From Squalus acanthias (lineage: Eukaryota): 64,000 nucleotides of DNA. The stretch lies in assembly GCA_030390025.1 (NCBI GenBank), contig JASTWF010000180.1, positions 682,001 to 746,000 of the forward strand, read 5' to 3'. Numbering within the stretch: the first letter of the stretch is position 1; each line of letters begins with the position of its first letter. The position numbers and the translations under genes are program-made. The notes under the pieces were generated by a model. It was not told where the DNA came from, ran no database searches, and saw only the letters and a program-made list of their open reading frames with translations. Below, one piece after another: positions 28,467 through 56,077 of the stretch.

Positions 28467-28509
28467 GGTTTCTGCATTGTGCAAGTAATGCATTGTGCAT
28501 AATCTCAAT
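28467..28509 (+). pseudogene. Relic family-B RSS + J 5' stub (first of 10 copies)
   Basis: GGTTTCTGC..TAATGCATTGTGCATAATCTCAAT vs intact B GGTTTATGC..TAATGCTGTGTGAATAATCTCAAT; other copies start at ~30283, 32948, 34764, 37430, 39228, 41145, 50485, 54057, 55874. Confidence 0.8.
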
Positions 28510-28611
28510 TTATGATGTGCAAACCACGTCTTCAAACATAACGGCCAGAAAGAGCAATAATGTACAAAAGTTAGTCTGAAGGGAGTTTTTGCTGAAGGGT
28601 GTAATGCTGTG

Positions 28612-28671
28612 TGAATGCTGGAGGTATCAAAATAACATTTGGATCTGGGACCAAACTAATGGTGCAGCCAA
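28612..28671 (+). CDS. TRAJ: TCR alpha J segment J33 (chimeric B')
   Basis: RSS 28584-28611; NAGGIKITFGSGTKLMVQP; GTAAGA. Confidence 0.9.
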
Positions 28672-29356
28672 GTAAGAGAAGCTTAATTCTGTATTTTTCT
28701 ATTATGATGATCACAGTCAAAACATTGTTTTGTAAAAAGCATTATCAGTTCGTTACAATTAAAGGTAACTATCAGCAAAGGACTGAACTGGCTGGGGATC
28801 AGTTCTCCAGGAAAGAGAAGGCTGAAGGGTGACTTAATAGAGGTCTTCAACATCGTGAAGAGGTTAGACTTACAGAAGATCTTTCCACTTGTTGGGGGGA
28901 CCAAAACTAGGGCTCATCTGTAAGATATAGTCATTAATAAATTCAATAAAGAAATCGGGAAATGGTTATTTACCCAGAGAGTGCTTAGAATGTGGAACTC
29001 GCTACTACATGGAGAAGTTGATGGGAATAGCATAGATGCATTTAAAATAAGCACATGAGGGGGAAAGGATAAGAACGATATGCAGAGAGGGTTTGATAAA
29101 GTAGGCAGGGAGAGGCTTGTGTGGAGCATAAACCCGGGCACAGACCAGTTGGGCCGAATGGGTTGTTTCTGTGCTGCCAATTCTATGTAATTCTATGTAA
29201 AAGTTATTTGGTATGGAAGATATTAACTGTTTGAACATCATGAATTCAAAGGGAAAGATAAAAGTTCCAAAACTCAAAAAACGGGAAGTCTTTAGAAATA
29301 ACAAGTGATGTAATGTCTGGCTGGGGAAGGTTTTAGTATCAGTATATCAGGCTGTG

Positions 29357-29416
29357 TGAATGTTGCTGGTAATAAGCTGATCTTTGGAACTGGGACCAGG
29401 CTCAATGTTATCCCAA
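29357..29416 (+). CDS. TRAJ: TCR alpha J segment J34 (C)
   Basis: RSS 29329-29356; NVAGNKLIFGTGTRLNVIP; GTAAGT. Confidence 0.9.
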
Positions 29417-29941
29417 GTAAGTGAGATATTTAAGGATGTCTGTTTTATATGCTAGAGCATAAAAGAGAAGCTTGTCAACAAATTAATTAAAATGTGGATC
29501 AAATAGAGAAAAGTGTCAGAAATCATAACTTTGCTCTGTTGCTGGCAGCCCATCCTTCGAGTTAGAAAGTTGTGAGATGGATCCTCACTCTATACTGAAA
29601 ACATGTAATGCAAGTTGATAGTCCAGCGCAGTACTGAGGGAGGGTTACATTTTCAGAACTACTTGGGAAGCATTCAGAGAGTTCTGGTGAACTGATATAT
29701 AAATGGACGCCTTAGTTTATTAATGAAAAAAGTAAGTTCTGCTTGAGTGATGAACAGAATATTGAAAAAAAAATGTAGATGTACCTAATAAATAACAATG
29801 GGCATTTGAAAACGGTTTCTACAGATAGTATCGCAATTATGGGATTGAGTGATACCAAGTATCAAATATAACCGCCAGAAAGAGCAGCAATGTACTAACG
29901 TTAGTCTGAAGGGAGTTTTTGTTAAAGGGCACAATGCTGTG

Positions 29942-30004
29942 TGACTGCTGGAGCTAGAGATAAGCTTATCTTTGGAAAAGGGACAAAGTTAACTGTGGAG
30001 CCAA
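29942..30004 (+). CDS. TRAJ: TCR alpha J segment J35 (A)
   Basis: RSS 29914-29941; TAGARDKLIFGKGTKLTVEP; GTAGGT. Confidence 0.9.
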
Positions 30005-30427
30005 GTAGGTATTCATTAATAACTATAGACAGTCGATTTAATTACATATCTGTGTGTGTTCTCTGAACTGCTGACAATATATCAAATCATTTCTCTAAAT
30101 GTTCAATTACTCCGGAATATTGGAACATTTATGCAGCTTCTTCTTGGAGTATGGATATGATAATTCATGGAATAATGCAAGAATAGGCATGTGTTAATAA
30201 TTCACCCTGGAATATTGATAATGGATATATATAACGTACAGTTGATTTTGTACATAGTCAATATGCTTTGCATCAGATAAAGGGTTTCTGTACTGGCAAG
30301 TAATGCATTGTTGCATAATCTCAATTTATGATGTGCAAACCAAGTATTCAAATATAACTGCCAGAAAGAGCAGAAATGAACAAAAGTTAGTCTGAAGGGA
30401 GTTTTTACCAAAGGGCGCAATGCTATG

Positions 30428-30487
30428 TGAATGCTGCAGGTTACAAACCAACATTTGGATCTGGGACCAAACTAATGGTGCAGCCAA
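30428..30487 (+). pseudogene. TRAJ: TCR alpha J segment J36 (B'), probably non-functional RSS
   Basis: AGTTTTTAC(30400)-12-TGCTATG (GTG lost); NAAGYKPTFGSGTKLMVQP; weak donor GTAACA. Confidence 0.75.
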
Positions 30488-31178
30488 GTAACAAAAGTTT
30501 AATTCTATATTTTTTAGTGTGATGATCACAGTCAAAACATTGTTTAGTTAATAAGTATCGTCAGCTCGTTACATTTAAAGGTAACTATCAACAAAGACTG
30601 AACAGGATGGGGTTCAGTTCTCTGGGAAAGAGAAGGCTGAAGTGTGACTTAATAGAGGTCTTCAACATTATGAAGAGGTCAGACTTATAGAAGATCTTTC
30701 CACTTATTGGGGAGACCAAAACTAGAGCTCGTCTGTATGATATAGTTACTAATCAATCCAATAAAGTATTCAGGAGAATGTTATTCACCCAGAGAGTGCT
30801 TAGAATGTGGAACTCGCTACTACATGGAGTAGTTGATGGGACTAGCATAGATGCATTTAAGATAAGCACATGAGAGGGAAAGTATTAGAAGGATCTGCAG
30901 AGAGGGTTTGATGAAGTAGGGAGGGAGGAGGCTTGTGTGGAACAGAAAGCCGGGCACAGACCAGTTGGGCCGAATGGGTTGTTTCTGTGCTGCCAATTCT
31001 ATGTAATTCTATGTTAAAGTTATATGCTCTGGAAGATATTAACTGTTTGCACATCATAAATTCAAAGGGAAATGTAAATATTCCAAAACTTAACTCAAAA
31101 AATGGATACTTCTTGAAGAACTAACAAGTGATGTAATGTCTGGCTGGGAAGGTTTTAGTATTAGTATATCAGACTGTG

Positions 31179-31235
31179 TGAATCGTGCTGATAAGCTGAT
31201 CTTTGGATCTGGGACCAGGCTCAATGTTATCCCAA
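31179..31235 (+). CDS. TRAJ: TCR alpha J segment J37 (C)
   Basis: RSS 31151-31178; NRADKLIFGSGTRLNVIP; GTAAGC. Confidence 0.9.
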
Positions 31236-31756
31236 GTAAGCGAGATGTTTAAGGATGTCTGTTTTATGTGTTAGAGCACAAAAGATAAGAAAGTTAACAA
31301 ATTAATTAAAATATGGATCAAATGGAGAAAAGTGTCAGAAATCATAACTTTGCTCTGTTGCTGGCAGCCCATCCTTCGAGTTAGAAAGTTGTGAGATGGA
31401 TCCTCACTCAATACCGAAAACATGTAATGCAAGTTGATAGTCCCGCGCAGTACTGAGGAGGGTTACATTTTCAGAACTACTCGGGAAGTCTTCGGAGAGT
31501 TCTGGTGAACTGATATATAAATGGTAGCCTTAGCCTATTAATGAAAGAAGTAAGTTAAGCTTGAGTGATGAACGAGTATTTTTTAAAAAAGCAAATATAC
31601 CTAATAAATAACAATGGGCATTTGAAAACGGTTTCTACAGATTGTATCACAATTATGGCATTGGGTGATCCCAAGAACAAATATAACCGCCAGACAGAGC
31701 AGGAATGAATTAAAGTTAGTCTGAAGGGAGTTTTTGCTACAGGACGCAATGCTGTG

Positions 31757-31819
31757 TGAATACTGGATCTGGCAACAAGCTTATCTTTGGAAAAGGGTCA
31801 AAGTTAACTGTGGTGCCAA
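31757..31819 (+). CDS. TRAJ: TCR alpha J segment J38 (A)
   Basis: RSS 31729-31756; NTGSGNKLIFGKGSKLTVVP; GTAGGT. Confidence 0.88.
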
Positions 31820-32607
31820 GTAGGTATTCATTAATAACTATAGACTGTCTATTTACTTACATATATGGGTGTGTTCTCTGAACTGCTTACAATGTATCAA
31901 ATCATTTCTCTGAACTGTTCAATTACTCCTGAATATTGGAACTTTTCTTATTTCTTATTGCAGTAAGGATATGATAATTCAGGTATCATGAGTGATGGTT
32001 CTGATATGTGCAGTTAATTGTCTGCCATTATGCACCTTATTAACCTAAAATGATGATCTGAATTGAACATGATATTGGAATATGGATATCATAATGCAGC
32101 ATTATTGCCAGCATTATAATCTTCAATTAAACACTATAATGCTTCCAATTATCTTGAAACTATGTAGCAGCTATTGACGTGAAGTACAGGACAATAAAGA
32201 CACTTGACTGTAATAGAACAACCTAATCTTCCATTAATGAACCAACAGACTGACATTGGGAGAGAAGTGTCAGAAATCCGAGGTTTGCTGTGTTGTTGTC
32301 ACTCCATTCTTTGAGTTAGAAAGTTGCGAGGTGGATCCCGCTCTATAATTAAAACTGGTATATAAATGGCAGACTTAGCTTCTTAATGCACAAGAAATAA
32401 GTCATGCTTGGGCTATAAACAGAATAAAATACTTAAAAAGTCATTTATGCATAATAATTATCAATGGTTATTTAAAATGGTTTCTGCAGATAGTGACACA
32501 GTAATGGGATTGAGTGATATCAAGTATTGAAATATAACCGCCAGAAAGAGCAGCAATGTACTAAAGTTAGTCTGAAGGGAGTTTTTGTTAAAGGCCGCAA
32601 TGCTGTG

Positions 32608-32670
32608 TGAATACTGGAGCTAACACCAAGCTTATCTTTGGAAAAGGGACCAAGTTAACTGTGGAGCCAA
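32608..32670 (+). CDS. TRAJ: TCR alpha J segment J39 (A)
   Basis: RSS 32580-32607; NTGANTKLIFGKGTKLTVEP; GTAGGT. Confidence 0.9.
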
Positions 32671-33091
32671 GTAGGTATTCATTAATAACTATAGATTGTC
32701 TATTTACTTACATATATGTGTGTGTTCTTTGCACTGCCCACAATGTAGCAAATCATTTCTCTAAATGTTCAGTTCATCCTGAATATTGGAACATTTATGC
32801 AGCTTCTTATTGAGTATCGATATGATAATTCAGGGATTAATGCAAGAATATGCATTTGTTAATAATTCAACCTGGAATATTGATAATGCATATATATAAC
32901 GTACATTTGATTTCGCAGATAGTCGATCTGCTTGGCATCAAGTAAAGGGTTTCTGCACAGCCATGTAATGCATTGTGCATAATCTCAATTTATGATGTGC
33001 AAACCACGTATTCAAACATAACGTCCAGAAAGAGCAGTAGTGAACTAAAGTTAGTCTGAAGGGAGTTTATGCCAAAGGGCGCAATGCTGTG

Positions 33092-33151
33092 TGAATGCTG
33101 CAGGTTACAAAGTAACATTTGGATCTGGGACCAAACTAATGGTGCGGCCAA
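33092..33151 (+). CDS. TRAJ: TCR alpha J segment J40 (B')
   Basis: RSS 33064-33091; NAAGYKVTFGSGTKLMVRP; GTAAGA. Confidence 0.9.
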
Positions 33152-33847
33152 GTAAGAGAAGTTTAATTCTGTATTTTTCTATTATAATGATCACTGTCAA
33201 AATATTGTTTTGTTAATAAGCATCATCAGTTGTTACAATTAAAGGTAACTATCAGCAAAGACTGAACAGGTTGGGGATCATTACTCTCGGAAAGAGAAGG
33301 CTGAAGGGTGACTTAATAGGCGTCTTCAACATGATGAAGGGGTTAGACTTATACAAGATCTTTCCACTTGTTGGGGAGATCAAAACTAGGACTCATCTGT
33401 ATGATATAGTTACTAATAAATTCAATAAAGAAATCAGGAAAATGTTATTTACCCAGAGAGTGGTTAGAATATGGAACTCGCTACTACATGGAGTAGTTGA
33501 TGGGAATAGCATAGATGCATTTAACATAAGCACATTTGGAGAAAGGATTAGAAGGATATGCAGAGAGGGTTTGATAAAGTAGGCAGGGAGGAGGCTTGTG
33601 TGGAGCATAAACACGGGCACAGACCAGTTGGGACGAATGGGTTGTTTCTGTGCTGCCAATTCTATGTAATTCTATGTGAAAGTTATTTGGTATGGAAGAT
33701 ATTAACTGTTTGCACATCATAAATTCGAAGGGAAAGATAAAAATTCCAAACCTCATAAAACGGATGGTTCTTTAAGAAATAACAACTGATGTAATGTCTG
33801 GGAATGTCTGGCTGTGGAAGGTTTTAGTATTAGTATATCAGGCTGTG

Positions 33848-33907
33848 TGAATGTTGCTGATAGGAAGCTGATCTTTGGAACTGGGACCAGGCTCAATGTT
33901 ATTCCAA
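33848..33907 (+). CDS. TRAJ: TCR alpha J segment J41 (C)
   Basis: RSS 33820-33847; NVADRKLIFGTGTRLNVIP; GTAAGC. Confidence 0.9.
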
Positions 33908-34425
33908 GTAAGCGAGATGTTTAAGGATGTCTGTTTTATGTGTTAGAGCATAAAAGAGAAGCAGGTCAACAAATTAATTGAAATATGGATCAAATGGAGA
34001 AAAGAGACAGAAATCATAACTTTGCTCTGTTGCTGGCAGCCCATCCTTCGAGTTAGAAAGTTGTGAGATGGATCCTCACTCTATACTGAAAACATGTAAT
34101 GCAAGTTGATAGTCCAGCGCTGTACTGAGGGAGGGTTACACTTTCAGAACTACTTGGGAAGCCTTCGGAGAGATCTGGAGAACTGATATATAAATGGTAG
34201 CCTTAGCTTATTAATGAAAAAAGTGCATTATGCTTGAGTGATAAAAATAATATATTTTAAAGCAGAGATACCTAATAAATAACGATGGGCATTTGAAAAC
34301 GGTTTCTACAGATAGTATCACAATTATGGCTGTGATACCAAGTATTCAAATATAACTGCCAGACAGAGCAGCAATGAACTAAAGTTAGCCTGAAGGGAGT
34401 TTTTGTTAAAGGGCTCAATGCTGTG

Positions 34426-34485
34426 TGAATCCTGGAACTAACAAGCTTATCTTTGGAAAAGGGACAAAGTTAACTGTGGAGCCAA
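34426..34485 (+). CDS. TRAJ: TCR alpha J segment J42 (A)
   Basis: RSS 34398-34425; NPGTNKLIFGKGTKLTVEP; GTAGGT. Confidence 0.9.
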
Positions 34486-34907
34486 GTAGGTATTCATTAA
34501 TAACTATAGACTGTCTATTTACTTACATATATGTGTGTGTTCTCTGCACTGCCCACAATGTATCAAATACTTTCTCTAAATATTCAGTTCATCCTGAATA
34601 TTGGAACATTTATGCCGCTTCTTAATGGGATATCGATATGATAATTCAGGGAATAATGCAAAATTCTGCATTTGTTAGTACGTTAACCTGCAATATTGAT
34701 AATGCATATATATAACGTACAGTTAATTTCATAGATAGTCAATCTGCTTGGCATCAGCTGAAGGGTTTCTGCACTGCCATGTAATGCATTGTGCATAATC
34801 GCAATTTATGATGTACAAACCATGTATTCAAACATAACGGCCAGAAAGAGCAGCAATGTACTGAAGTTAGTCTGAAGGGAGTTTTTGCCAAAGGGTTTAA
34901 TGCTGTG

Positions 34908-34967
34908 TGACTGATGGAGGTTACAAAGTAACATTTGGATCTGGGACCAAACTAATGGTGCAGCCAA
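34908..34967 (+). CDS. TRAJ: TCR alpha J segment J43 (B')
   Basis: RSS 34880-34907; TDGGYKVTFGSGTKLMVQP; GTAAGA. Confidence 0.9.
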
Positions 34968-35662
34968 GTAAGAGACGGTTAATTCTGTATTTTTTATTAT
35001 GATGATCACAGTCAAAACATTGTTTTGTTAATAAGTATCGTCAGTTCGTTACATTTAAAGGTATCTATCAGCAAAGACTGAACAGGCTGGGGATCAGTTC
35101 TCTGGGAAAGATAAGGCTGAAGGGTGACTTAATAGAGGTCTTCAACATTGTGAAGAGGTTAGACTTATAGAAGATCTTTCCACTTGTTGGGGAAACCAAA
35201 AGTAGGGCTCATCTGTATGATATAGTTACTAATAAATTCAATAAAGAATTCAGGAAAAAGTTAGTCACCCAGAGAGTGTTAGACTGTGGAACTCGCTACT
35301 ATATGGAGTAGTTTATGGTAATAGCATAGATGCATTTAAGATAAGCAAATGAGGGAGAAAGGATTAGAACGATATGCAGAGAGGATTTGATAAAGTAGGG
35401 AGGGAGGCGGCTTGTGTGGAGCATAAACCCGGGCACAGACACTTGGGCTGAATGGCCTGTTTCTATGCTGCCAGTTCTATCTAATTCAATGTAAAAGTTA
35501 TTTGGTATGGAAGATATTAACTGTTTGCACATCATGAATTCAAAGGGAAAGATAAAAGTTCCAAAACTCAAAAAACGGATGGTTCTTCAAGAAATAACAA
35601 GTGTTGTAATGTCTGGGAATGTCTGGCTGGGGAAGGTTTTTGTATTAGCATATCAGGCTGTG

Positions 35663-35722
35663 TGAGTCTTGATAATACTAAGCTTATATTTGGATCTGGG
35701 ACCAGGCTCAATGTTATACCAA
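35663..35722 (+). CDS. TRAJ: TCR alpha J segment J44 (C)
   Basis: RSS 35635-35662; SLDNTKLIFGSGTRLNVIP; GTAAGT. Confidence 0.9.
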
Positions 35723-36241
35723 GTAAGTGAGATGTTTAAGGATGTGTTTTTTATGTGTTAGAGCATAAAAGAGAAGCAGGTCAACAAATTAGTTAAAATG
35801 TGGATCAAATGAAAACGGTGTCAGAACTGATAACTTTGCTCTGTTTCTGTCAGCCCATCCTTCGAGTTGTGAGATGGATCCTCACTCTATACCGAAAACA
35901 TGTAATGCAAGTTGATAGTCCAGCGCAGTACTGAGGGTGTTTTCCACTTGTAGAACTACTTGGGAAGCATTCAGCGAGTTCTGGTGAACTGATATATAAA
36001 TGGTAGCCTTAGCTTCTTAATGCACAAGAAATAATTCATGTTTGGTTTATAAACAGAGTAAAAATGTTAAAAGGTCATATATGCCTAATAATTATCCATG
36101 TTTATTTAAAATGGTTTGGAGAGAAAGTCTCACAATAATGGGATTGAGTGATACCAAGTATTCAAATATAACAGCCAGAAAGAGCAGCAATGTACTGAAC
36201 TTAGTCTGAAGGGAGTTTTTGCTAATGGACGCAATGCTGTG

Positions 36242-36301
36242 TGAATGCTGGAGCTGGCAAGCTTATCTTTGGAAAAGGGACAAAGTTAACTGTGGAGCTA
36301 A
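36242..36301 (+). CDS. TRAJ: TCR alpha J segment J45 (A)
   Basis: RSS 36214-36241; NAGAGKLIFGKGTKLTVEL; GTAGGT. Confidence 0.88.
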
Positions 36302-37088
36302 GTAGGTATTCATTAATTACTATAGACTGTCTATTTACTTACATATATGTGTGTGTTCTCTGCACTGCCCACAATGTATCAAATCATTTCTCTAACTGTT
36401 CAATTACTCCTAAATATTGGAACATTTCTTATTTCTTATTGGAGTAAGGATATGATAATTCAGGTATCATGAGTGATGGTTCTGATATGTGCAGTTAATT
36501 GTCTGCCATTATGCACCTTATTAACCTAAAATGATGATCTGAATTGAACATGATATTGGAGTATGGATATCATAATTCAGGATTGTTGCCAGCATTATAA
36601 TCTTCAATTAAACACTATAATGCTTACAATCATCTTGAAACTAATTGCCAGCTATTGACGTTAACTACCTGACAATAAAGACACACGACTGTAATAGAAC
36701 AACCTAATCTTCCATTAATGAACCAACCGACTGACATTGGGAGAGAAGTGCCAGAAATCCGAGGTTTGCTCTGTTGTTGTCACTCCATTCTTTGAGTTAG
36801 AAAGTTGCGAGGTGGATCCCGCTCTATAATTAAAACTGGTATATAAATGGCAGACTTAGCTTCTTAATGCACAAGAAATAAGTCATGCTTGGGCTATAAA
36901 CAGAATAGAAAACTTAAAAAGTCATTTATGCATAATAATTATCAATGGTTATTTAAAATGGTTTCTGCAGATAGTGACACAGTAATGCGATTGAGTGATA
37001 TCAAGTATTGAAATATAACCGCCAGAAAGAGCAGCAATGTACTAAAGTTAGTCTGAAGGGAGTTTTTGTTAAAGGCCGCAATGCTGTG

Positions 37089-37151
37089 TGAATACTGGAG
37101 CTAGACACAAGCTTATCTTTGGAAAAGGGACAAAGTTAACTGTGGCGCCAA
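37089..37151 (+). CDS. TRAJ: TCR alpha J segment J46 (A)
   Basis: RSS 37061-37088; NTGARHKLIFGKGTKLTVAP; GTAGGT. Confidence 0.9.
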
Positions 37152-37573
37152 GTAGGTATTCATTAATAACTATAGACTGTCTATTTATTTACATATCCGA
37201 GTGTGTTCTCTGCACTGCCCACAATGTATCAAATAATTTCTCTGAATGTTCAGTTCAATTTGAATATTGGAACATTTATGCAGCTTCTTATTGGAGTATC
37301 GATATGATAATTCAGGGAATAATGCAAGAATAGGCATTTGTTAATAATTCAACCTGGAATATTGATAATGCATATATATAACATACAGTTGATTTCGTAG
37401 ATTGTCAATCTGCTTGGCATCAAGTAAAGGGTTCCTGCACTGGCAGGTAATGCATTGTGCATAATCTCAATGTATGATGTACAAACCAATTATTGAAACA
37501 TAACGGCCAGAAAGAGCAGCAATGAACTAAAGCTAGTCTGCAGGGAGTTTTTGTTAAAGGCCGCAATGCTGTG

Positions 37574-37633
37574 TGAATGATGGAAGTTTCAAAGTAACAT
37601 TTGGATCTGGGACCAAACTAATGGTGCAGCCTA
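37574..37633 (+). CDS. TRAJ: TCR alpha J segment J47 (B')
   Basis: RSS 37546-37573; NDGSFKVTFGSGTKLMVQP; GTAAGT. Confidence 0.9.
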
Positions 37634-38320: not shown

Positions 38321-38380
38321 TGAATCTTGCTGGTAATAAGCTGTTCTTTGGATCTGGGACCAGGCTCAATGTTATCCCAA
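38321..38380 (+). CDS. TRAJ: TCR alpha J segment J48 (C)
   Basis: RSS 38293-38320; NLAGNKLFFGSGTRLNVIP; GTAAGT. Confidence 0.9.
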
Positions 38381-38949: not shown

Positions 38950-39371
38950 GTAGGTATTAATTCACAACTGTAGACTGTCTATTTACTTACATATCTGGGT
39001 GTGTTCTCTGAACTGCTGACAATGTATCAAATCATTTCTCTAAATGTTCAATTCATCCTGAATATTGGAACATTTATGCCGCTTCTTATTGGAGTAGGGA
39101 TATGATAATTCAGGGAATAATGCAAGATTAGGCATTTGTTAATAATTCAACCTGGAATATTGATAATGCATATATATAACGTACGGTTGATTTCATAGAT
39201 AGTCAATATGATTGGCATCAGGTAAAGGGTTTCTGCACTGCCATGTAATGCATTGTGCATAATCTCAATTTATGATGTGCAAACCAAGTATTCAAACATA
39301 GCGGCCAGAAAGAGCAGTAATGTACTGAAGTTAGTCTGAAGAGAGTTTTTGTTAAAGGCCACAATGCTGTG

Positions 39372-39431
39372 TGACTACTGGAAGTTTCAAAGTAACATTT
39401 GGATCTGGGACCAAACTAATGGTGCAGCCTA
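39372..39431 (+). CDS. TRAJ: TCR alpha J segment J50 (B')
   Basis: RSS 39344-39371; TTGSFKVTFGSGTKLMVQP; GTAAGA. Confidence 0.9.
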
Positions 39432-40866: not shown

Positions 40867-41289
40867 GTAGGTATTCATTAATAACTATAGACTTTCTATT
40901 TACTTACATATATGTGTGTGTTCTCTGCACTGCCTATAATGTATCAAATCATTTCTCTAAATGTTCAGTTCATACTGAATATTGGAACATTTATGCCGCT
41001 TCTTAATGCGGTATTCATATGATAATTCAGGGAAAAATGCAAAATTTTGCATTTGTTTGTATTTTACCCTGGAATATTGATAATGCATATATATAACGTA
41101 CATTTGATTTCGTAAATAGTCAATCTGCGTGGCATCAGGTGAAGGGTTTCAGCACTGCCATGTAATGCATTGTGCATAATCTCAATTTATGATGTGCAAA
41201 CCAAGTATTCAAACCTAACGGCCAAGAAAGAGCAGTAATGAACTAAAGTTAGTCTGACGGGAGTTTTTGCCAAAGGCCGAAATGATGTG

Positions 41290-41349
41290 TGAATGTTGGA
41301 GGTTACAAACTAACATTTGGATCTGGGACCAAACTAATGGTGCAGCCAA
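41290..41349 (+). CDS. TRAJ: TCR alpha J segment J53 (B')
   Basis: RSS 41262-41289 (TGATGTG); NVGGYKLTFGSGTKLMVQP; GTAAGT. Confidence 0.88.
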
Positions 41350-42099: not shown

Positions 42100-42623
42100 G
42101 TAAGTGAGATGTTTAAGGATGTCTCTTTTATGTGTTCGAGCATAAAAGAGAAGAAAGTCAACAAAGTAATTAAAATGTGGATGCAATGCAGGAAAGTGTC
42201 AGAAATCATAACTTTACTCTGTTGCTGGCAGCCCATTCTTCGAGTTAGAAAGTTGTGAGATGGATCCTCACTCTATACCGAAAATATATAATGCAAGGTG
42301 ATAGTCCAGCACAGTACTGAGGGAGGGTTCCATTTTCAGAACTATTTGGGAAGCATTCAGAGAGTTCTGGTGAGCTGATATATAAATGGTAGCCTTAGAG
42401 TATTAATGAAAAAAGTAAGTTATGCTTGAGTGATAAACAGAATATTTTTATTAAAGTCAGATACGCCAAAAAATAACAATGGGCATTTGAAAACGGTTAC
42501 TACAAATAGTTTCACAATTATGGCATTGAGTGATACCAAGTTTTCAAATATAACCGCCAGACAGAGCAGCAATGTACTAAAGTTAGTCTGAAGGAAGTTT
42601 TTGCTACAGGGCGCAATGCTGTG

Positions 42624-42684
42624 AATGATGGAGCTATCACTAAGCTTACCTTTGGAAAAGGGACAAAGTTAACTGTGGAGCCAA
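42624..42684 (+). CDS. TRAJ: TCR alpha J segment J55 (A)
   Basis: RSS 42596-42623; lacks leading TG; NDGAITKLTFGKGTKLTVEP; GTAGGT. Confidence 0.88.
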
Positions 42685-43496: not shown

Positions 43497-43819
43497 GTAG
43501 GTATTCATTAATAACTACAGACTGTCTATTTATTTGCATATATGTGTGTGTTCGCTGGACAGCCTACAATGTATCAAATCATTTCTCTGAATGTTCAGTT
43601 AATCCTGAATATTGGAACATTTATGCCGCTTATTATTGGAGTATGGATATGATAATTCAGGTATCATAAGTGATGCTGGATTAATGCAAGAATAGGCACT
43701 TGTTAATAATTAACCTGGAATATTGATAATGCTTAAAAATAGCATACAGTTCATTTCATAGATAGTCAATATGCTTGGTATCAGTTAAGAGAGTTTATGA
43801 ACTGGTATGTAATGATGTG

Positions 43820-43876
43820 TGAATAATCTCAATACACTAACATTTGGATCTGGGACCAGACTAATGGTGCAGCCAA
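43820..43876 (+). CDS. TRAJ: TCR alpha J segment J57 (B, ancestral type)
   Basis: AGTTTATGA(43792)-12-TGATGTG (weak); NNLNTLTFGSGTRLMVQP; GTAAGT. Confidence 0.82.
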
Positions 43877-45989: not shown

Positions 45990-46312
45990 GTAGGTATTCA
46001 TTAATAACTATAGACTGTCTATTTACTTACATATATGTGTGTGTTCTCTGAACTGCCTACAATGTATCAAAAAATTTCTCTGAATGTTCAATTAATCCTG
46101 AATATTGGAACATTTATGCCGATTATTATTGCACTATGGATATGATAATTCAGGTATCATAAGTGATGCTGGATTAATGCAAGAAGAGGCACTTGTTAAT
46201 AATTAACCTGGAATATTGATAATGCTTAAATATAACATGCAGTTCATTTCATAGATAGTCAATATGCTTCGCATCAGGTAAAAGAGTTTATGAACTGGTT
46301 TGTAATGATGTG

Positions 46313-46369
46313 TGAATAATCTCAATGCACTAACATTTGGATCTGGGACCAGACTAATGGTGCAGCCAA
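46313..46369 (+). CDS. TRAJ: TCR alpha J segment J61 (B, ancestral type)
   Basis: AGTTTATGA(46285)-12-TGATGTG (weak); NNLNALTFGSGTRLMVQP; GTAAGT. Confidence 0.82.
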
Positions 46370-47024: not shown

Positions 47025-47081
47025 TGAATGTTGGTAATAAGCTGATCTTTGGAACTGGGACCAGGCTCAATGTTATACCAA
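47025..47081 (+). CDS. TRAJ: TCR alpha J segment J62 (C)
   Basis: RSS 46997-47024; NVGNKLIFGTGTRLNVIP; GTAAGT. Confidence 0.9.
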
Positions 47082-47603
47082 GTAAGTGAGATGTGTAAGG
47101 ATGTCAGTGTTTTGTGTTAGAGCATAAAAGAGAAGCAGGTCAACAAATTAATTAAAATGTGGATCAAATGAAAAAAGTGTCTGAATTCATACTTTGCTCT
47201 GTTGCTGGCAGCCCATCCTTCGAGTTAGAAAGTTGTGAGGTGGATCCTCACTCTACACCGAAAACAGGTAATGCAAGGTGATAGTCCAGCGCAGTACTGA
47301 GGGAATGTTCCACTTTCAGAACTACTTGGGAAGATTTCAGAGAGTTCTGGTGATCTGATATATAAATGGTAGCCTTATCTTATTAATGAAAAAAGTAAGT
47401 TCTGCTTGAGTGATGAAAAGAATATTTTTATTCAAATCAGACATGCCAAAAAATAACAATGGGGATTTGAAAACTGTTACTACAAATAGGATCACAATTA
47501 TGGCATTAGGTGATACCAAGTATTGAAATATAAACGCCAGAAGGAGCAGCAATGTACTAAAGTTAGTCTGAAGGGAGTTTTTGCTACAGGGCGCAATGCT
47601 GTG

Positions 47604-47666
47604 TGAATGATAGAGCTACCAATAAGCTTACCTTTGGAAAAGGGACAAAGTTAACTGTGGAGCCAA
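47604..47666 (+). CDS. TRAJ: TCR alpha J segment J63 (A)
   Basis: RSS 47576-47603; NDRATNKLTFGKGTKLTVEP; GTAGGT. Confidence 0.9.
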
Positions 47667-48408
47667 GTAGGTATTCATTAATGATTATAGACTGTCTATT
47701 TACTGACATATATGCGTGTGTTCTCTGCACTGCCCACAAATAGTTTCTCGATACGATCAATTAATCCTGAATATTGGAATATTTATGCCGCTTCTTATGG
47801 GAGTGTGGCTATAATAATGCAGGATTATTACCAGCATTATAATCTTTAATTAAAGACTATAATGGTTACAATCATCTTGAAACTAATTACCAGATGTTGA
47901 CGTTAACTACAGGACAATAAAGACACATGACTGTAATAGAACAACCTAATCTTTCATTAATGAACCAACAGACTGACATTGGGAGAGAAGGGTCAGAAAT
48001 CCTAGGTTTGCTCAGTTGTTCTGAGCCCATCTTGTGCGATAGAAAGTTGTGAGGTGGATCCTCGCTCTATATCGAAAACATGTAATGCAAGTTGATAGTC
48101 CAGCGAAGTGCAGAGGGAGTGTTCCACATTTAGAACTACTTGGGAAGCCTTCGGGGAGTTCTGGTGAACTGATATATAAATGGTAGCCTGACCTTTCTAA
48201 CGCACAAGAAATAAGTCATGTTTGGATTATCGACAGAATATTTTAATTAAAAAAGTCACATATGCTTAATAATTAAAATGGTTTGTACAGATTGTTACAC
48301 AATAATGGGAATGAGTGATAGCAAGTATTCAAATATAACTGCCAGACCGAGCAGCAATCTACTAAAGTTAGTCTGAAGGGAGTTGTTGTTAAAGGCCGCA
48401 ATGCTGTG

Positions 48409-48471
48409 TGAATCTTGGAGTTAACACCAAGCTTATCTTTGGAAAAGGGACCAAGTTAACTGTGGAGCCAA
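48409..48471 (+). CDS. TRAJ: TCR alpha J segment J64 (A)
   Basis: AGTTGTTGT(48381)-12-TGCTGTG; NLGVNTKLIFGKGTKLTVEP; GTAGGT. Confidence 0.87.
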
Positions 48472-48794
48472 GTAGGTATTCATTAATAACTATAGACTGT
48501 CTATTTACTTACATATATGTGTGTGTTCTCTGTACTGCCCACAATGTATCAAATCATTTCTCTGAATGTTCAATTAATCCTGAATATTTGAACATTTATG
48601 CCGCTTACTATTGGAGTATGGATATGATAATTCAGGTACCATGAGTGATGCTGGATTAATGCAAGAATAGGCACTTGTTAATAATTAACCTGGAATATTG
48701 ATAATGCTTAAATATATCATACAGTTAATTTCATAGATAGTCAATATGCCTGGCATTAGGTAAAAGGGTTTATGCACTGGTATGTAAGGCTGTG

Positions 48795-48851
48795 TGAATA
48801 ATCTCAAGAAGCAAACGTTTGGATCTGGGACCAAACTAATGGTGCAGCCTA
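48795..48851 (+). CDS. TRAJ: TCR alpha J segment J65 (B, ancestral type)
   Basis: GGTTTATGC(48767)-12-GGCTGTG; NNLKKQTFGSGTKLMVQP; GTAAGT. Confidence 0.87.
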
Positions 48852-49561
48852 GTAAGTGCAGTTTAATTCTGTATTATTTATTATGATGATCACAGTCAAA
48901 ACATGGTTTTGCTAGTAAGTATCGTCAGTTCGTTATAATTAAAGGTAAATATCAGCAAAGACTGAACAGGCTGGGGATCATTTCACTCGGAAAGACAAGG
49001 CTGAATAGTGAATTAATAGAGGTCTTCAACATTATGAAGGGGTTAGACTTATAGAAGATCTTTCCACTTGTTGCAGAGACCAAAACTAGGGCTCATCTGT
49101 ATGATAGAGTTACTAATAAATCCAATAAAAAATACATGAGAAACTTATTTACCCAGAGAGTGGTTAGACTGTGGAACTCGCTACTTCATGGTGTAGTTGA
49201 TGGGAATAGCATAGGTGCATTTAAGATAAGCACATTTGGAGAAAGGAATAGGAGGATCTGCAGAGAGGGTTTGATAAAGTAGGGGGGAGGAGGCTTGTGT
49301 GGAGCATAAACCCGGGCACAGACCAGTTGGGCCGAATGGGTTGTTTCTGTGCTGCCAATTCTATGTTTAAGTTTAATTTCTATGCTAAAGTTATTTCGTA
49401 TGGAAGATATTAACTGTTTGCACATCATAAATTCAAAAAGGAAATGTAAACATTCCACAACTTAACTCAAAAAACAGATGGTTCCAGAAGAAATAACAAG
49501 TGATGTAATGTCTGGGAATGTCTGGCTGGGGATGGTTTTAGTATTAGTATATCAGGCTGTG

Positions 49562-49621
49562 TGAATCTTGGTAATAATTAGCTGGTCTTTGGATCTGGGA
49601 CCAGGCTCAATGTTATCCCAA
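49562..49621 (+). pseudogene. TRAJ: TCR alpha J segment J66 (C) with in-frame stop
   Basis: RSS 49534-49561 intact; NLGNN*LVFGSGTRLNVIP (TAG 49579-49581). Confidence 0.85.
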
Positions 49622-50142
49622 GTAAGTGAGATGTTTAAGGATGTCTGTTTTATGTGTTAGAGCACAAAAGAGAAGCAGGTCAACAAATTAATTGAAATAT
49701 GGATCAAATGGAAAAAGTGTCAGCAATCATAACTTTGCTCTGTTGCTGGCAGCCCATCCTTGAGTTAAAAAGTTGTGAGATGGATCCTCACTCTATAGCG
49801 AAAACATGTAATGCAAGTTGATAGTCCAGCGCAGTACTGAGTGAGGGTTCCATTTTCAGAACTACTTGGGAAGCATTCGGAGAGTTCTGGTGAACTGATA
49901 TATAAATGGTAGCCTGAGCTTATTTATGAAAAAAGTACGTTTATCCTTGCGTGATGAACAGAATATTTTAAAAATCAGATATACCTAATAAATAACAATG
50001 GGCATTTGTAAACGGTTTCTACAGATAGCATCACAATTACGGGATTGTGTGATACCAAGTAAACAAATATAACCGCCAGAAAGAGCAGCAATGTACTAAA
50101 GTTAGTCTGAAGGAAGTTTTTGTTAGAGGCCGCAATGCTGTG

Positions 50143-50205
50143 TGAATGCTGGAAGTGCCACCAAGCTTATTTTTGGAAAAGGGACAAAGTTAACTGTATT
50201 GCCAA
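50143..50205 (+). CDS. TRAJ: TCR alpha J segment J67 (A)
   Basis: RSS 50115-50142; NAGSATKLIFGKGTKLTVLP; GTAGGT. Confidence 0.9.
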
Positions 50206-50629
50206 GTAGGTATTCATTAATAACTATAGACTGTCTATTTATTTACATATCTGTGTGTGTTCTCGGCACTGCTGACAATGTATCAAATCATTTCTCTAAA
50301 TATTCAGTTCATCCTGAATATTGGAACATTTATGCCGCTTCTTAATGGGGTATCGATATGATAATTCAGGGAATAATGCAAAATTTCTGCATTGTTTATT
50401 ATTTTAACCTGGAATATTGATAATGCATGTATATAACGTACAGTTGATTTCGTAGATAGTCAATCTGCTTGGCATCAGTTAAACGGTTTCTGTACTGGTC
50501 TGTCATGCATTGTGCATAATCTCAATTTATGATGTACAAACCAAGTATTCAAACATAACGGCCAGAAAGAGCAGCAATGTACTAAAGTTTTTAAAGAAGG
50601 GAGTTTTTGCCAAAGGGTGTAATGCTGTG

Positions 50630-50689
50630 TGAATGATGCAGGTTACAAACTAACATTTGGATCTGGGACCAAACTAATGGTCCAGCCAA
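50630..50689 (+). CDS. TRAJ: TCR alpha J segment J68 (B')
   Basis: RSS 50602-50629; NDAGYKLTFGSGTKLMVQP; GTAAGT. Confidence 0.9.
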
Positions 50690-51385
50690 GTAAGTGAAGT
50701 TTAATTCTGTATTTTTCTATTATGATGATCACAGTCAAAACATTGTTTTGTTAATAAATATCGTCAGTGCGTTACATTTAAAGGTAACTATCAGCAAAGA
50801 CTGAAAAGGCTGGGGATCAGTTCTCTGGGAAAGAGAAGGCTGAAGTGTGACTTAATAGAGGTCTTCAACATTATGAAGAGGTTAGACTTAGAGAAGATCT
50901 TTCCACTTGTTGGGGAGACCAAAACTAGGGCTCATCTGTATGATATAGTTACTAATAAATCCAATAAAGAATTCAGGAGAAAGTTATTTACTCAGAGAGT
51001 GTTAGACTGTGGAACTCGCTACTACATGGAGTAGTTGATGGGAATAGCATAGATGCATTTAAGATAAGCACATTTGGAGAAAGGATTAGAAGGACCTGCG
51101 GAGAGGGTTTCATAAAGTAGGGAGGGAAGAGGCTTGTGTGGAGCATAAACACGGGCACAGGCCAGTTGGGCCGAATGGGTTGTTTCTGTGCTGCCAATTC
51201 TATGTAACTCTATGTTAAAGTTATTTGGTATGGAAGATATTAACTGTTTGCACATCATAAATTCAAAGGGAAAGATAAAAGTTCCAAAATTCATAAAACG
51301 GATGGGTCTTTAAGAAATGACAAGTGATGTAATGTCTGGGAATGTCTGGCTGGGGAAGGTTTTAGTATCAGTATATCAGGCTGTG

Positions 51386-51445
51386 TGAATCTTGGCAATA
51401 ATAAGCTGATCTTTGGATCTGGGACCAGGCTCAATGTTATACCAA
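51386..51445 (+). CDS. TRAJ: TCR alpha J segment J69 (C)
   Basis: RSS 51358-51385; NLGNNKLIFGSGTRLNVIP; GTAAGT. Confidence 0.9.
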
Positions 51446-51969
51446 GTAAGTGAGATGTGTAAGGATGTCTGTTTTATGTGTTAGAGCATAAAAGAGAAGC
51501 AGGTCAATTAATTAATTGAAATGTGGATCAAATAGAGAAAAGTGTCAGAAATCATAACTTTGCTCTGTTGCTGGCAGCCCATCCTTGAGTTAGAAAGTTG
51601 TGAGGAGGATCCTCACTCTATACCGAAAACATGTAATGCAAGTTGATAGTCCAGCGCAGTACTGAGGGAGGGTTACACTTTCAGAACTACTTGGGAAGCA
51701 TTCGGAAAGTTCTGGTGAACTGATGTATAAATGGTAGCCTTAGCTTATTAATGAAAAAAGTAAGTTCTGTTTGAGTGATTAACAGAATATTTTTATTCAA
51801 ATCAGATGTACCCAAAAAATAACAGTGGGCAATTGAAAACGCATTCTACAGATAATATCACAATTATGGCATTAGGTGATACCAAGTAATCAAATATAAC
51901 CGCCAGACAGAGCAGCAATGTACTAAAGTTAGTCTGAAGGGAGTTTTTGTTGAAGGGCGCAATGCTGTG

Positions 51970-52032
51970 TGAATGCTGCAGGTATCAATAAGCTTACCTT
52001 TGGAAAAGGGACAAAGTTAACTGTGGAGCCAA
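51970..52032 (+). CDS. TRAJ: TCR alpha J segment J70 (A)
   Basis: RSS 51942-51969; NAAGINKLTFGKGTKLTVEP; GTAGGT. Confidence 0.9.
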
Positions 52033-52356
52033 GTAGGTATTCATTAATAACTATAGACTGTCTATTTACTTACATACATGTGAATGTTTTCTGCACTACC
52101 TAAAATGTATCAAATCATTTCCCGATATGTTCAGTTAATCCTGAATATTGGAACATTTATGCTGCTTATTATTGGAGTATGTATTTCATAATTCAGGTAT
52201 TCTGAGTGATGTTGGATTAATGAAAGAATAGGCACTTGTTAATATTTTAATCTGGACTATTGATAATGTTTAAATATAATATACAGTTGATTTCGTAGAT
52301 AGTCAATATGCTTGGCACCAGGTAAAAGGGTTTATGCACTGGCATGTAATGCTGTG

Positions 52357-52413
52357 TGAATACTCTCAATAAACTAACATTTGGATCTGGGACCAAACTA
52401 ATGGTGCAACCAA
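52357..52413 (+). CDS. TRAJ: TCR alpha J segment J71 (B, ancestral type)
   Basis: GGTTTATGC(52329)-12-TGCTGTG; NTLNKLTFGSGTKLMVQP; GTAAGT. Confidence 0.9.
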
Positions 52414-53130
52414 GTAAGTGAAGTTAAATTCTATATTTTCTATTATGATGATCACAGTCAAAACATGGTTTAGATCATAAGTATCGTCAGTTCATTAAAA
52501 TTAAAGGTAAATAATAACTATCAGCAAAGAATGAACAGGCTGGGGATCATTTCTCTAGACAAGAGAAGGCAGAGTGGTGATCTTATCGAGGTCATTAACA
52601 ATATGAACGGGCTTGATAGGGTAGACATTGAGAAGATCTTTCCACGTGTTGGGGAGATCAAAGCTAGGGCTCATCAATATGAGATAGGCACTAATACATC
52701 CAATAAAGAATGTAGGAGAAACTTATTTACCCAGAGAGTGATTTGAATGTTGATCTCGCTACTATATGGAGTAGTTTATGGGAGTAGCATAGATGCATTT
52801 AAGATAACAACATGAGGGAGAAAGGATTAAAAGAATCTGCAGAGAGGATTTGATAAAGTAGGGGGGAGGAGGCTTGTGTGGAGCATAAACACGGGCACAG
52901 ACCAGTTGGGCCGAATGGGTTGTTTCTGTGCTGCCAGTTCTATGTCATTCTATGTTAAAGTTATTTGGTATGGAAGATATTAACTGTTTGCTCATCATAA
53001 ATTCAAAGGGAAATGCAAACATTCCAAAACTTAACTCATAAAACGGATAGTTCTAGAAGAAATAACAAGTGATGTAATGTCTGGGAATGTCTGGCTGGGG
53101 AAGGTTTTAGTATTAGTATATCAGGCTGTG

Positions 53131-53190
53131 TGAATCTTGGTACTGATAAGCTGATCTTTGGAACTGGGACCAGGCTCAATGTTATCCCAA
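53131..53190 (+). CDS. TRAJ: TCR alpha J segment J72 (C)
   Basis: RSS 53103-53130; NLGTDKLIFGTGTRLNVIP; GTAAGT. Confidence 0.9.
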
Positions 53191-53715
53191 GTAAGTGAGA
53201 TGTTTAAGGATGTCTGTTTTATGTGTTAGAGCACAAAAGAGAAGCAGGTCAACAAATTAATTGAAATATGGATCAAATAGAGAAAAGTGACAGAAATCAT
53301 AACTTTGCTCTGTTGCTGGCAGCCCATCCTTCGAGTTAAAAAGTTGTGAGGTGGATCCTCACTCTATACCGAAAACATGTAATGCAAGTTGATAGTCCAG
53401 CGCAGTACTGAGGGAGGGTTCCATTTTCAGAACGACTTGGGAAGCCTTCGGAGAGTTCTGGTGAACTGATATATAAATGGTAGCCTTAGAGTATTCATGA
53501 AAAAAGTAAGTTATGCTTGGGTGATACACAGAATATTTTTATTAAAATCAGATATGCCTAAAAAATAACAATGGGCATTTGAAAACGGTTTCTACAGATA
53601 GCATCACAATTACGGGATTGGGTGATACCAAGTAAACAAATATAACCGCCAGACAGAGGAGCAATGTACTAAAGTTAGTCTGAAGGGAGTTTTTGTTAAA
53701 GGCCGCAATGCTGTG

Positions 53716-53778
53716 TGAATGCTGAAGGTAACACTAAGCTTATCTTTGGAAAAGGGACAAAGTTAACTGTGGAGCCAA
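53716..53778 (+). CDS. TRAJ: TCR alpha J segment J73 (A)
   Basis: RSS 53688-53715; NAEGNTKLIFGKGTKLTVEP; GTAGGT. Confidence 0.9.
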
Positions 53779-54200
53779 GTAGGTATTCATTAATAACTAT
53801 AGACTGTCTATTTATTTACATATATGTGTGTGTTCTCTGCACTGCCCAACATGTATCAAATCATTTCTCTAAATGTTCAGTTCATGCTGAATAGTGGAAC
53901 ATTTATGCCACTTCTTAATGGGGTATCGATATGATAATTCAAGGAATAATGCAAAATTTTGCATTTGTTCGTATTTTAACCTGGAATATTAATAATGCAT
54001 ATATACAACGTACATTTGATTTCGTAGATAGTCAATCTGCTTGGCATCAGGTGAAGGGTTTCTGCACTGCCATCTAATGCATTGTGCATAATCTCAATTT
54101 ATGCTGTGCAAACCATGTATTCAAACATAACGGCCAGAAAGAGCAGTACTGTACTAAAGTTTGTCTGAAGGGAGTTTTTGCTAATGGCCGCAATGCTGTG

Positions 54201-54260
54201 TCAATGCTGGAGGTTTCAAACTAACATTTGGATCTGGGACCAAACTAATGGTGCAGCCCA
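54201..54260 (+). CDS. TRAJ: TCR alpha J segment J74 (B')
   Basis: RSS 54173-54200; NAGGFKLTFGSGTKLMVQP; GTAAGA. Confidence 0.9.
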
Positions 54261-54959
54261 GTAAGAGAAGTTTAATTCTGTATTTTCTATTATGATGATA
54301 ACAGTCAAAACATTGTTTTGTTAAAAAGTATCGTCAGTTCATTGCAATTAAAGGTAACTATCAGCAAAGACTGAACAGGCTGGGGATCAGTTCTCTAGGA
54401 AAGAGAAGGCTGAAGTGTGAATTAATAGAGGTCTTCAACATGATGAAGAGGTTAGACTTATAGAAGGTCTTTCCACTTGTTGGGGAGACAAAAACTAGGG
54501 CTCATCTGTATGATATAGTTACTAATCAATCCAATAAAGAATTCAGAAGAAAGTTATTTACCCAGAGGGTATTTAGAAAGTGGAACTCGTTACTACATGG
54601 AGTAGTTGATGGGAATAGCATAGATGTATTTATGATAACAACATGAGAGAGAAAGGATTAGAAGGATCTGGAGAGAGGGTTTGAAAAGTAGGGGGGAGGA
54701 GGCTTGTGTGGAGCATAAACCGGGCACAGACCAGTTGGGCCGAATGGGTTGTTTCTGTGCTGCCAATTCTATGTAATTCTATGTTAAAGTTATTTGGTAT
54801 GGAAGATATTACCTGTTTGCAAATCATAATTTTAAAGGGAAATGTAAACATTCCAAAGCTTAACTCAAAAAACAGATGGTTCATTAAGAAATGACAAGTG
54901 ATGTAATGTCTGGGAATGTCTGGCTGGGGAAGGTTTTAGTATCAGTATATCAGGCTGTG

Positions 54960-55016
54960 TGAATCCTGCTGATAAGCTGATCTTTGGATCTGGGACCAGG
55001 CTCAATGTTATACCAA
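54960..55016 (+). CDS. TRAJ: TCR alpha J segment J75 (C)
   Basis: RSS 54932-54959; NPADKLIFGSGTRLNVIP; GTAAGT. Confidence 0.9.
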
Positions 55017-55532
55017 GTAAGTGAGATATTTAAGGATGTCTGTTTTATGTGTTAGAGCATACAAGAGAAGCAGGTCAACAAATTAATTAAAATGTGGATC
55101 AAATGAAAAAGTTGTCAGAAATCATAACTTTGCTCTGTTGCTGGCAGCCCATCCTTCGAGTTAGAAAGTTGTGAGGTGGATCCTCACTCAATACCCAAAA
55201 TATGTAATGCAAGTTGATAGTGCAGCGCAGTACTGAGGGTGGGTTACATTTTCAGAACTACTTGGGAAGCATTCAGGAAGTTCTGGTGATCTGATATATA
55301 AATGGTAGCCTTAGAATATTAATGAAAAAGTAAGTTATGCTTGGGTGAATATTTTTATTAAAATCAGATAGGCCTAAAAAAATAACAATGGGCATTTGAA
55401 AACGGTTTCTGCAGATAGTTTCACAATTATGGGATTGTGTGATCCCAAGTATTCAAATATAACCGCCAGACAGAGCAGCAATGAACTAAAGTTAGTCTGA
55501 AGGGAGTTTTTGTTAAAGGGCACAATGCTGTG

Positions 55533-55595
55533 TGTATGATGAAGTTGTCAACAAGCTTATCTTTGGAAAAGGGACAAAGTTAACTGTGGGGCCAA
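55533..55595 (+). CDS. TRAJ: TCR alpha J segment J76 (A)
   Basis: RSS 55505-55532; YDEVVNKLIFGKGTKLTVGP; GTAGGT. Confidence 0.88.
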
Positions 55596-56017
55596 GTAGG
55601 TATTCATTAATAACTATTGACTGTCTATTTACTCACATATATGTGTGTGTTCTCTGCACTGCCCACAATGTATCAAATCATTTCTCTAAATGTTTAATTA
55701 CTCCTGAATATTGGAGCATTTATGCAGCTTCTTATTGGAGTAGGGATATGATAATTCAGGGAATAATGCAAGAATAGGCATTTGTTAATAATTCAACCTG
55801 GAATATTGATAATGCATATATATAACGTACAGTTGATTTCGTAGATAGTCGATCTGCTTGGCATCAGGTGAAGGTTTTCTGTACTAGCATGTAATGAATT
55901 GTGCATAATCTCAATTTATGATGTACAAACCAAGTATTGAAACATAACGGCCAGAAAGAGCAGTAATGTACTAAAGGTAGTCTGAAGGTAGTTTTTGCCA
56001 AAGGGTGTAATGCTGTG

Positions 56018-56077
56018 TGAATGCTGGAGGTTTCACACTAACATTTGGATCTGGGACCAAACTAATGGTGCAGCCAA
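56018..56077 (+). CDS. TRAJ: TCR alpha J segment J77 (B')
   Basis: RSS 55990-56017; NAGGFTLTFGSGTKLMVQP; GTAAGT. Confidence 0.9.

Follow-up and report, generated by a model that had tools for sequence, protein, structure and literature searches.

Introduction

Arrays of joining (J) gene segments are usually pictured as growing by the duplication of whole segments. The present study concerns a 64,000-nucleotide (64-kb) stretch of DNA of the shark Squalus acanthias (contig JASTWF010000180.1, positions 682,001 to 746,000 of the forward strand; hereafter the window, with positions counted from its first base), which is probably an array of T-cell receptor (TCR) J-alpha segments. Ten of its segments, called B', are chimeric: they combine the recombination signal sequence (RSS) and the end facing complementarity-determining region 3 (CDR3) of one J family, A, with framework region 4 (FR4), the splice donor and the intron of another, B. 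The J-kappa segments of the rat, where duplications by unequal crossing-over and germline changes of CDR3-end codons have reportedly occurred, would resemble B' in germline exchange and in the diversification of the CDR3 end, whereas whole J units are said to have been duplicated there, with no displaced relic of an RSS.

The closest described arrays are the TRAJ arrays of cartilaginous and bony fish (Giorgetti et al. 2023, PMC10322711), with a fixed RSS register and TG microhomology, in which, according to the accessible text, J have a 12-spacer RSS (12-RSS), a TG follows the heptamer and J lengths fall into classes differing by whole codons; B' keeps this register. The same text describes "rogue" elements whose RSS has moved by 1–2 nt, whereas it mentions neither a J family of chimeric make-up nor the grafting of a second RSS. 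The accessible parts of two reports (PMC10322711, PMC13433984) indicate that the number of J-alpha segments and their 5' codons weigh heavily in the TCR-alpha diversity of fish, and that the junctions are partly determined in the germline. The germline-joined immunoglobulin light-chain genes of the nurse shark (Lee et al. 2000, PMC2193156) are another case of heritable remodelling near an RSS in a cartilaginous fish. They are, in the sections available, V-J joins at the RSS border with loss of the RSS and with P nucleotides, whereas B' gains an RSS and its break lies 14 nt inside the coding end. Conversion within a shark antigen-receptor complex is reported for the C domains of UrIg2 (PMC12227049, available portion). 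Searches of the open-licence literature and the accessible parts of PMC10322711, PMC5931798 and PMC13433984 showed no precedent for a chimeric J whose former RSS persists as a displaced relic.

Results and Discussion

Anatomy of the B' units

All ten B' units have the same order: the upstream flank of family B, a decayed B RSS with the first 14 coding bases (the relic), an insert, the last 9 bases before the Phe codon of the FGxG motif, and the FR4, donor and intron of B. The 16 B and B' units were found where the preliminary description had placed them, and its numbering (27 A, 6 B and 10 B') was reproduced when two J with variant motifs, FAKG and LGSG, were included; a further family, C, has 17 members by the same census. 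In this window B' outnumbers its parent B, 10 to 6. The insert, which is 119 nt long in eight units and 120 nt in two, contains an A-type upstream flank of about 75 nt, a 12-RSS and the first five codons; 74–75 nt of it precede the new RSS and 17 nt follow. The distance between the relic nonamer and the new nonamer is 116 nt in six units and 117 nt in four, as had been given before.

The distance from the heptamer to the Phe codon is 23 nt in B, and B' keeps all 23 bases, divided 14 + 9 around the insert. Because all of these coding bases are retained, the change is a pure insertion in which no B base was lost; the earlier term "replacement" does not apply, and the old RSS was displaced. The B' J itself measures 26 nt from the heptamer to the Phe codon in all ten units, which equals the short class of A (5 of 27), the class that includes the most divergent A. 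An open FGxG frame and a GT donor at +34 are present in every B' unit. The heptamer of the new 12-RSS has the GTG (CAC) end in nine units, the exception being unit 2 (30454) with TGCTATG, and the TG coding start is in the conserved register in nine of the ten. Unit 2, with this heptamer and the donor GTAACA, is probably a pseudogene. Among the six B, the nonamer is GGTTTATGC in four and AGTTTATGA in two, so the B pattern quoted previously holds as a consensus and not for every copy. The units are as follows.

28467..28509, + strand: B' unit 1, relic (B RSS and 14-nt coding stub, 13-nt spacer)
28510..28628, + strand: B' unit 1, 119-nt A-derived insert, new nonamer at 28584; the J, NAGGIKITFGSGTKLMVQP, ends at 28671
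30283..30487, + strand: B' unit 2; relic 30283–30325, insert 30326–30444, new heptamer TGCTATG, donor GTAACA
32948..33151, + strand: B' unit 3; relic 32948–32989, insert 32990–33108, new nonamer 33064
34764..34967, + strand: B' unit 4; relic 34764–34805, insert 34806–34924, new nonamer 34880
37430..37633, + strand: B' unit 5; relic 37430–37471, insert 37472–37590, new nonamer 37546
39228..39431, + strand: B' unit 6; relic 39228–39269, insert 39270–39388, new nonamer 39344
41145..41349, + strand: B' unit 7; relic 41145–41186, 120-nt insert 41187–41306, new nonamer 41262
50485..50689, + strand: B' unit 8; relic 50485–50526, 120-nt insert 50527–50646, new nonamer 50602
54057..54260, + strand: B' unit 9; relic 54057–54098, insert 54099–54217, new nonamer 54173; coding end starts with TC, not TG
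55874..56077, + strand: B' unit 10; relic 55874–55915, insert 55916–56034, new nonamer 55990
24287..24371, + strand: divergent B without insert (RSS and J), in the older, unamplified unit
43792..43876, + strand: B without insert, weak RSS (AGTTTATGA / TGATGTG)
46285..46369, + strand: B without insert, weak RSS
48767..48851, + strand: B without insert
52329..52413, + strand: B without insert
58611..58695, + strand: B without insert

The new nonamer of unit 3 (33064–33072, AGTTTATGC) has a B-like ending, which may reflect a point mutation or a micro-conversion from B.

Ancestry of the blocks and polarity

The relic agrees with the B RSS and coding stub at 36 of 42 nt, with an alignment score of 54 relative to a mean of 14.2 and a maximum of 31 in 2000 dinucleotide shuffles; it is therefore not random-like sequence. 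The insert matches the A consensus over 113 columns with a score of 177 (shuffle maximum 32), and its match to B is limited to a 14-nt heptamer core. The preliminary description had A-type sequence follow the relic; the A match stands, with the amendment that in B' AATCTCAAT and ACCAAG are separated by 13 nt, TTATGATGTGCAA, which are degenerate A upstream sequence. A scan of the window found no relic-like sequence outside the B' units, and none upstream of any of the 27 A.

In the tree of the RSS and 5' block, the ten new B' blocks group with the 27 A (support 100/100), and the ten relics group with the six B (100/100) and form one clade (98/94), where the alignments are short and the bootstraps not fully settled. 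The tree of FR4 and intron places B' with B (100/100). The proposal of a germline chimera, in which an A-type RSS and CDR3 end was put onto a B FR4 and donor, was thus upheld for each block, and the 5' block does not cluster with B. In the tree of the left flank (156 nt), B' is one clade (100/98). The ten B' have the same four changes in the relic and another four in the flank, and all of them lack a 17-nt upstream segment that the five amplified B possess. Since the relics form one clade, the left module had one founder, which was then amplified, as had been suggested. The divergent B at 24338 has an intact RSS and no insert. Because this copy of the older unit is uninserted, the insertion is polarised as derived and B as ancestral.

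Two further candidates were rejected. The A upstream flank does not resemble an older B relic, with a consensus score of 18 relative to a shuffle mean of about 17.5 (p 0.40–0.48) and per-copy scores of 12–21. Faster decay of the relic than of the flank on the founder branch was also not supported (4/42 vs 4/113, p = 0.14, with eight columns straddling the 17-nt indel dropped; with them, 10/121 and p = 0.51).

Use of the new RSS and state of the relic

If the B' FR4 changed as fast as the flank, it should have 10.5 replacement and 3.5 silent states; it has 1 (P = 3e-4) and 3, the silent ones being at the neutral level, which indicates that this FR4 is under purifying selection. Two to five in-frame stops lie between the relic and FR4 in all ten units. 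The constraint on FR4 therefore makes use through the new RSS most likely, since these stops separate the relic from FR4 everywhere, and the B' family probably functions in this way. An RSS matrix trained on 25 unamplified RSS of the window gave medians of 21.9 for the new B' RSS, 23.9 for A and 16.0 for B; the relic in register scored −0.4 to 8.8, and the score of −16 for unit 2 (30454) is a mis-sited match. The CDR3-end codons of B' have 12 replacement states and no silent one (p = 0.02; P = 0.07 and 0.06 relative to the flank rate), which is suggestive of diversifying selection. B' may plausibly have spread because it gained RSS strength and CDR3 variety. As a separate observation, six CDR3-end codons of the 21 long A (27200–63070) have 24 replacement and 3 silent states (pN 0.38, pS 0.20, p = 0.054), a hint of germline diversifying selection in family A.

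The in-register heptamer of the relic ends with TTG in ten of ten units, and CAC is required for cleavage by RAG (PMC10536018, accessible part). The motif CATTGTG, which by the account in the accessible part of the same review is a good heptamer, is present in eight relics, with 14-nt spacing in seven and 15-nt spacing in one. Its GTG end consists of the last G of the old heptamer and the TG that opens most J-alpha coding ends. It is not conserved beyond the neutral expectation (2 events vs 3.2), and the RSS matrix located no nonamer at 11–13 nt from this shifted heptamer. The relic has no CAC at 12 (±1) nt and is not conserved above the flank. The motif at 14-bp spacing, pointed out in the preliminary description, is thus confirmed in seven of the ten relics, but the case for its special status is weak. 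Because the stops occur in all ten units, it is well supported that the relic would be dead for productive use; the earlier verdict "dead" holds to that extent and not for RAG cutting, which may occasionally occur cryptically at the relic.

Junctions and proposed origin

Compared base by base, the sequence changes from A-type to B-type at −10 to −7 relative to the Phe codon, which is also where the left break lies. On the right, the junction keeps the register of the J, and with it the frame and the TG start. The left junction lies at a 7/8-nt microhomology between B ATCTCAAT and A ATCACAAT; of the 27 A, 11 match by 7/8 or better in the 23-nt window where this is expected, compared with 1.5% of random 23-nt windows. 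The A copy that best fits the donor layout is the following.

34317..34442, + strand: A copy with its Phe codon at 34452, with ATCACAAT, shortened spacing to ACCAAG and a 26-nt short J

Only one gap, of 1 nt, is needed to align this copy to the insert over its full length; by substitution score the copy ranks third of 27.

One break is the simplest cause, because both junctions meet at one point of B with nothing lost. We infer that a single germline double-strand break occurred in a family-B J-alpha, between the CDR3 codons (..CTC AAT) and the Lys-Leu codons before FGxG. The template for its repair would have been a sibling short-type A J of the same tandem array, in a synthesis-dependent ectopic gene conversion: the FR4 end would pair in register with the A J at Lys-Leu/FGxG, synthesis running leftwards would copy 119 nt, made up of five codons, the RSS and some 75 nt of the flank upstream, and the new strand would rejoin the other end at the microhomology of ATCTCAAT and ATCACAAT. 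Such steps are those of synthesis-dependent strand annealing and microhomology-mediated end joining, as generally known. The old RSS with four codons would thereby be displaced about 117 nt upstream and severed from FR4 by stops, and its heptamer would lose the essential GTG in the founder. The A-B'-C unit of about 1.8 kb would then be multiplied by unequal exchange, and V-J joining through the new RSS would put an eight-codon A-like CDR3 end onto a B framework, with the relic as a passenger. This explanation as a whole, from the single break through copying from a neighbouring A and amplification to use of B' through the new RSS, is on balance the probable one.

The proposed founding process is a known way of making chimeric genes, namely ectopic conversion or templated insertion among tandem paralogues. 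As in ectopic gene conversion in other tandem arrays, the donor family is retained, recipient flanks lie on both sides and the junctions are at homology or microhomology; the B' tract is likewise a paralogue tract between recipient sequences with homology or microhomology at both junctions. Unlike in those cases, the tract carries a recombination signal and changes the RSS that drives the J, and B' gains 119 nt without overwriting, so that the former signal survives as a fossil.

Several observations weigh against this account. The right-flank tree (700 nt) does not recover the B' clade (3 changes, AU p = 0.073), and none of 515 right-flank columns is diagnostic of B', suggesting either that units exchanged sequence later or that the origin had two steps. 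The A copies are related, so the microhomology amounts to roughly one test (p about 0.015), and no single A among the 27 is clearly the donor by score. A protein search with the B' J, weak because the query has about 20 residues, found no expressed candidate among longer proteins. Two ordinary events could also have produced B': a microhomology-mediated duplication or deletion would fuse the 5' part of B to the A flank, giving a relic with a whole A, and an in-register unequal crossover of A with B would then supply the B FR4 and intron. The unit order shows an array plainly shaped by unequal exchange, the left- and right-flank trees disagree, and the deletion of the E-family J between A and B in the amplified units shows that such deletions occur here. 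However, the intermediate is missing among the 27 A, and the crossover would have to fall within the first 3–6 nt of about 47 homologous J positions, exactly at the earlier break. This coincidence, counted by hand, is modest evidence; a later conversion from B to B' would shift the apparent junction to the same limit and could mimic it, and because of this the two-event origin keeps real weight as a minority explanation. The opposite polarity, in which B' is ancestral and plain B arose by a precise 119-nt deletion, might be read from the short (T)CAA repeat that can be drawn at both insert ends and from the interspersion of B and B'. It is scarcely credible when the in-register GTG heptamer is present in all B and lost from all ten relics, the insert is missing from the B of the older unit, which is the most divergent copy, and the insert differs from present A at 12–14 positions, similar to the 9–13 between B' copies.

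A lymphocyte editing enzyme, RAG or the deaminase AID, acting in germ cells might instead have made the break or moved the RSS. The motif AGCT, an AID hotspot, adjoins the break in the divergent B, but most J of the window have AAGCT (Lys-Leu), which is thus uninformative. RAG-like germline joining is reported in the nurse shark (PMC2193156), and TCR-alpha of sharks is an AID target in the thymus (PMC5931798), each in the parts of these papers that are available. However, the stub is still attached to its RSS, and adjacent substitutions near the B' J, of the hypermutation type, are not in excess (5 vs 5.5 expected, ratio 0.91). A 3–5 bp target-site duplication could be drawn as the (T)CAA repeat at the insert ends, and the A donor supplies the same bases. 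An origin by germline RAG is unlikely, because the break lies 14 nt from the RAG cut site at the heptamer/coding border and the insert has its RSS internally and not at its ends; for editing enzymes in general, the proposal is a very doubtful one. It is also improbable that the relic is kept for a function, either as another site for RAG, which would use the shifted heptamer (CACAATG in reverse complement), or as a promoter-like element. CACAATG is a preferred heptamer type and cryptic sites without a nonamer can be cut (PMC10536018, accessible part), the shifted site scores 8.5–19.5 with the spacer ignored, like B, and variation is low in a stretch of 21–33 nt across the junction (pointwise P 0.013 and 0.002). 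Against this stand the spacer of 14–15 nt, scores of only −2.7 to −10.8 for the best nonamer at 11–13 nt, the absence of conservation in both heptamer (2 vs 3.2 expected events) and nonamer (4 vs 4.2), the loss of the low-variation window after scan correction (P 0.17–0.81), and the stops that any join would meet. A broader proposal is that the RSS and CDR3 end of shark J-alpha form an exchangeable germline module, in which breaks arise where CDR3 meets FR4, perhaps through a lymphoid editing enzyme active in germ cells, and are mended from sibling J, ongoing micro-conversion shuffles CDR3 codons and RSS variants between families, and the relic CACAATG is still cut by RAG. We regard this, too, as a long shot. 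If true, new J families would be built by a heritable equivalent of somatic gene conversion, and in each B' unit a decoy site would lie 116 nt from the productive one. The "modular shuffling" proposed previously is retained for one founding event, and as a repeated process it is only hinted at by suggestive later patches.

On the templated-insertion explanation, a new J family can arise below the level of the segment by taking the RSS and CDR3 end of another family; here both parents survive, and the old signal does so as a fossil. The locus is a natural experiment, in which one FR4 stands under two RSS types and a good heptamer stands at a 14-nt spacer. Annotation tools should not count the relics as J pseudogenes or as additional RSS.

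Later exchange between families

A and B' share 19 polymorphisms relative to 13.5 ± 2.6 expected (p = 0.03), and unit 2 (30454) has the A states at both B'-diagnostic sites. Among 270 pairs, no A-B' conversion tract reaches global significance (best global p = 0.24), so that ongoing conversion from A to B' is no more than suggested by the shared states. In the opposite family direction, the following patch was found in an A at the 5' edge of the array.

27258..27272, + strand: B-type FR4 patch of three consecutive B-diagnostic bases in the otherwise A-type J at 27239

This A, which has LMVQP instead of LTVEP in FR4, likely received the patch by a micro-conversion from B to A. It is the nearest or tied-nearest A for six of the ten B' inserts.

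The surrounding array

The scan of the 64-kb window found 84 J segments with FGxG, all of which belong to the + strand; the − strand has none. Every one of them has a 12-spacer RSS upstream and a GT donor 34 nt past the Phe codon. The distances from the heptamer to Phe fall into classes of 23, 26, 29 and 32 nt, in steps of whole codons, and TG is at the coding start in 74 of the 84. From about 27 kb on, the array consists of repeats of three families that are 80–89% identical, in units such as A-B'-C and A-A-B-C. A reverse-transcriptase fragment at 10729–11283, which we take to be of the CR1 type, has its best named animal matches in Mobula, Chiloscyllium, Leucoraja and Callorhinchus (58–70% identity), with reptiles at 44–51%. 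The B' peptide compared with PDB gave best matches that are mostly TCR alpha chains, all weak (best E 0.009). Because of the J anatomy, these TCR alpha matches and the closest similarity of the retroelement to sharks, rays and a chimaera, the window is probably a TCR J-alpha array of a cartilaginous fish. No C exon was recognised among the open reading frames of the window, and Rfam gave 0 matches. Two further J have variant motifs, FAKG (23604) and LGSG (near 12040). Individual features of the array are listed below.

11985–12075: J with LGSG instead of FGSG
21.8–25.5 kb: older, diverged unit with the order C, D, A, E, B
23550–23637: oldest A, with FAKG instead of FGKG
49555–49621: J of family C whose frame contains a TAG

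Between its A and its B, the older unit has one J more (E, 23938); a comparison of 23640–24290 with the amplified A-B intervals shows that the amplified units are without E. The joins of A and B flanks in B and in B' lie 17 nt apart. Each B and B' intron contains the truncated 3' end of a retrotransposon, presumably CR1-like, with a short repeated tail (28770–29200 and equivalents), which was multiplied along with the unit. Indels in this retroelement divide the B copies into older (24338, 52380 and 58662) and derived ones. In the CDR3 part of the J at 6055–6118 there is another FGxG-like motif (RFGTGTGRQSFGSGTKL), which may stem from an internal duplication. In the A-family J at 42617–42684, which has no TG after the heptamer and 27 nt to Phe, the RSS is displaced by two bases, comparable to the "rogue" elements in the accessible text of PMC10322711.

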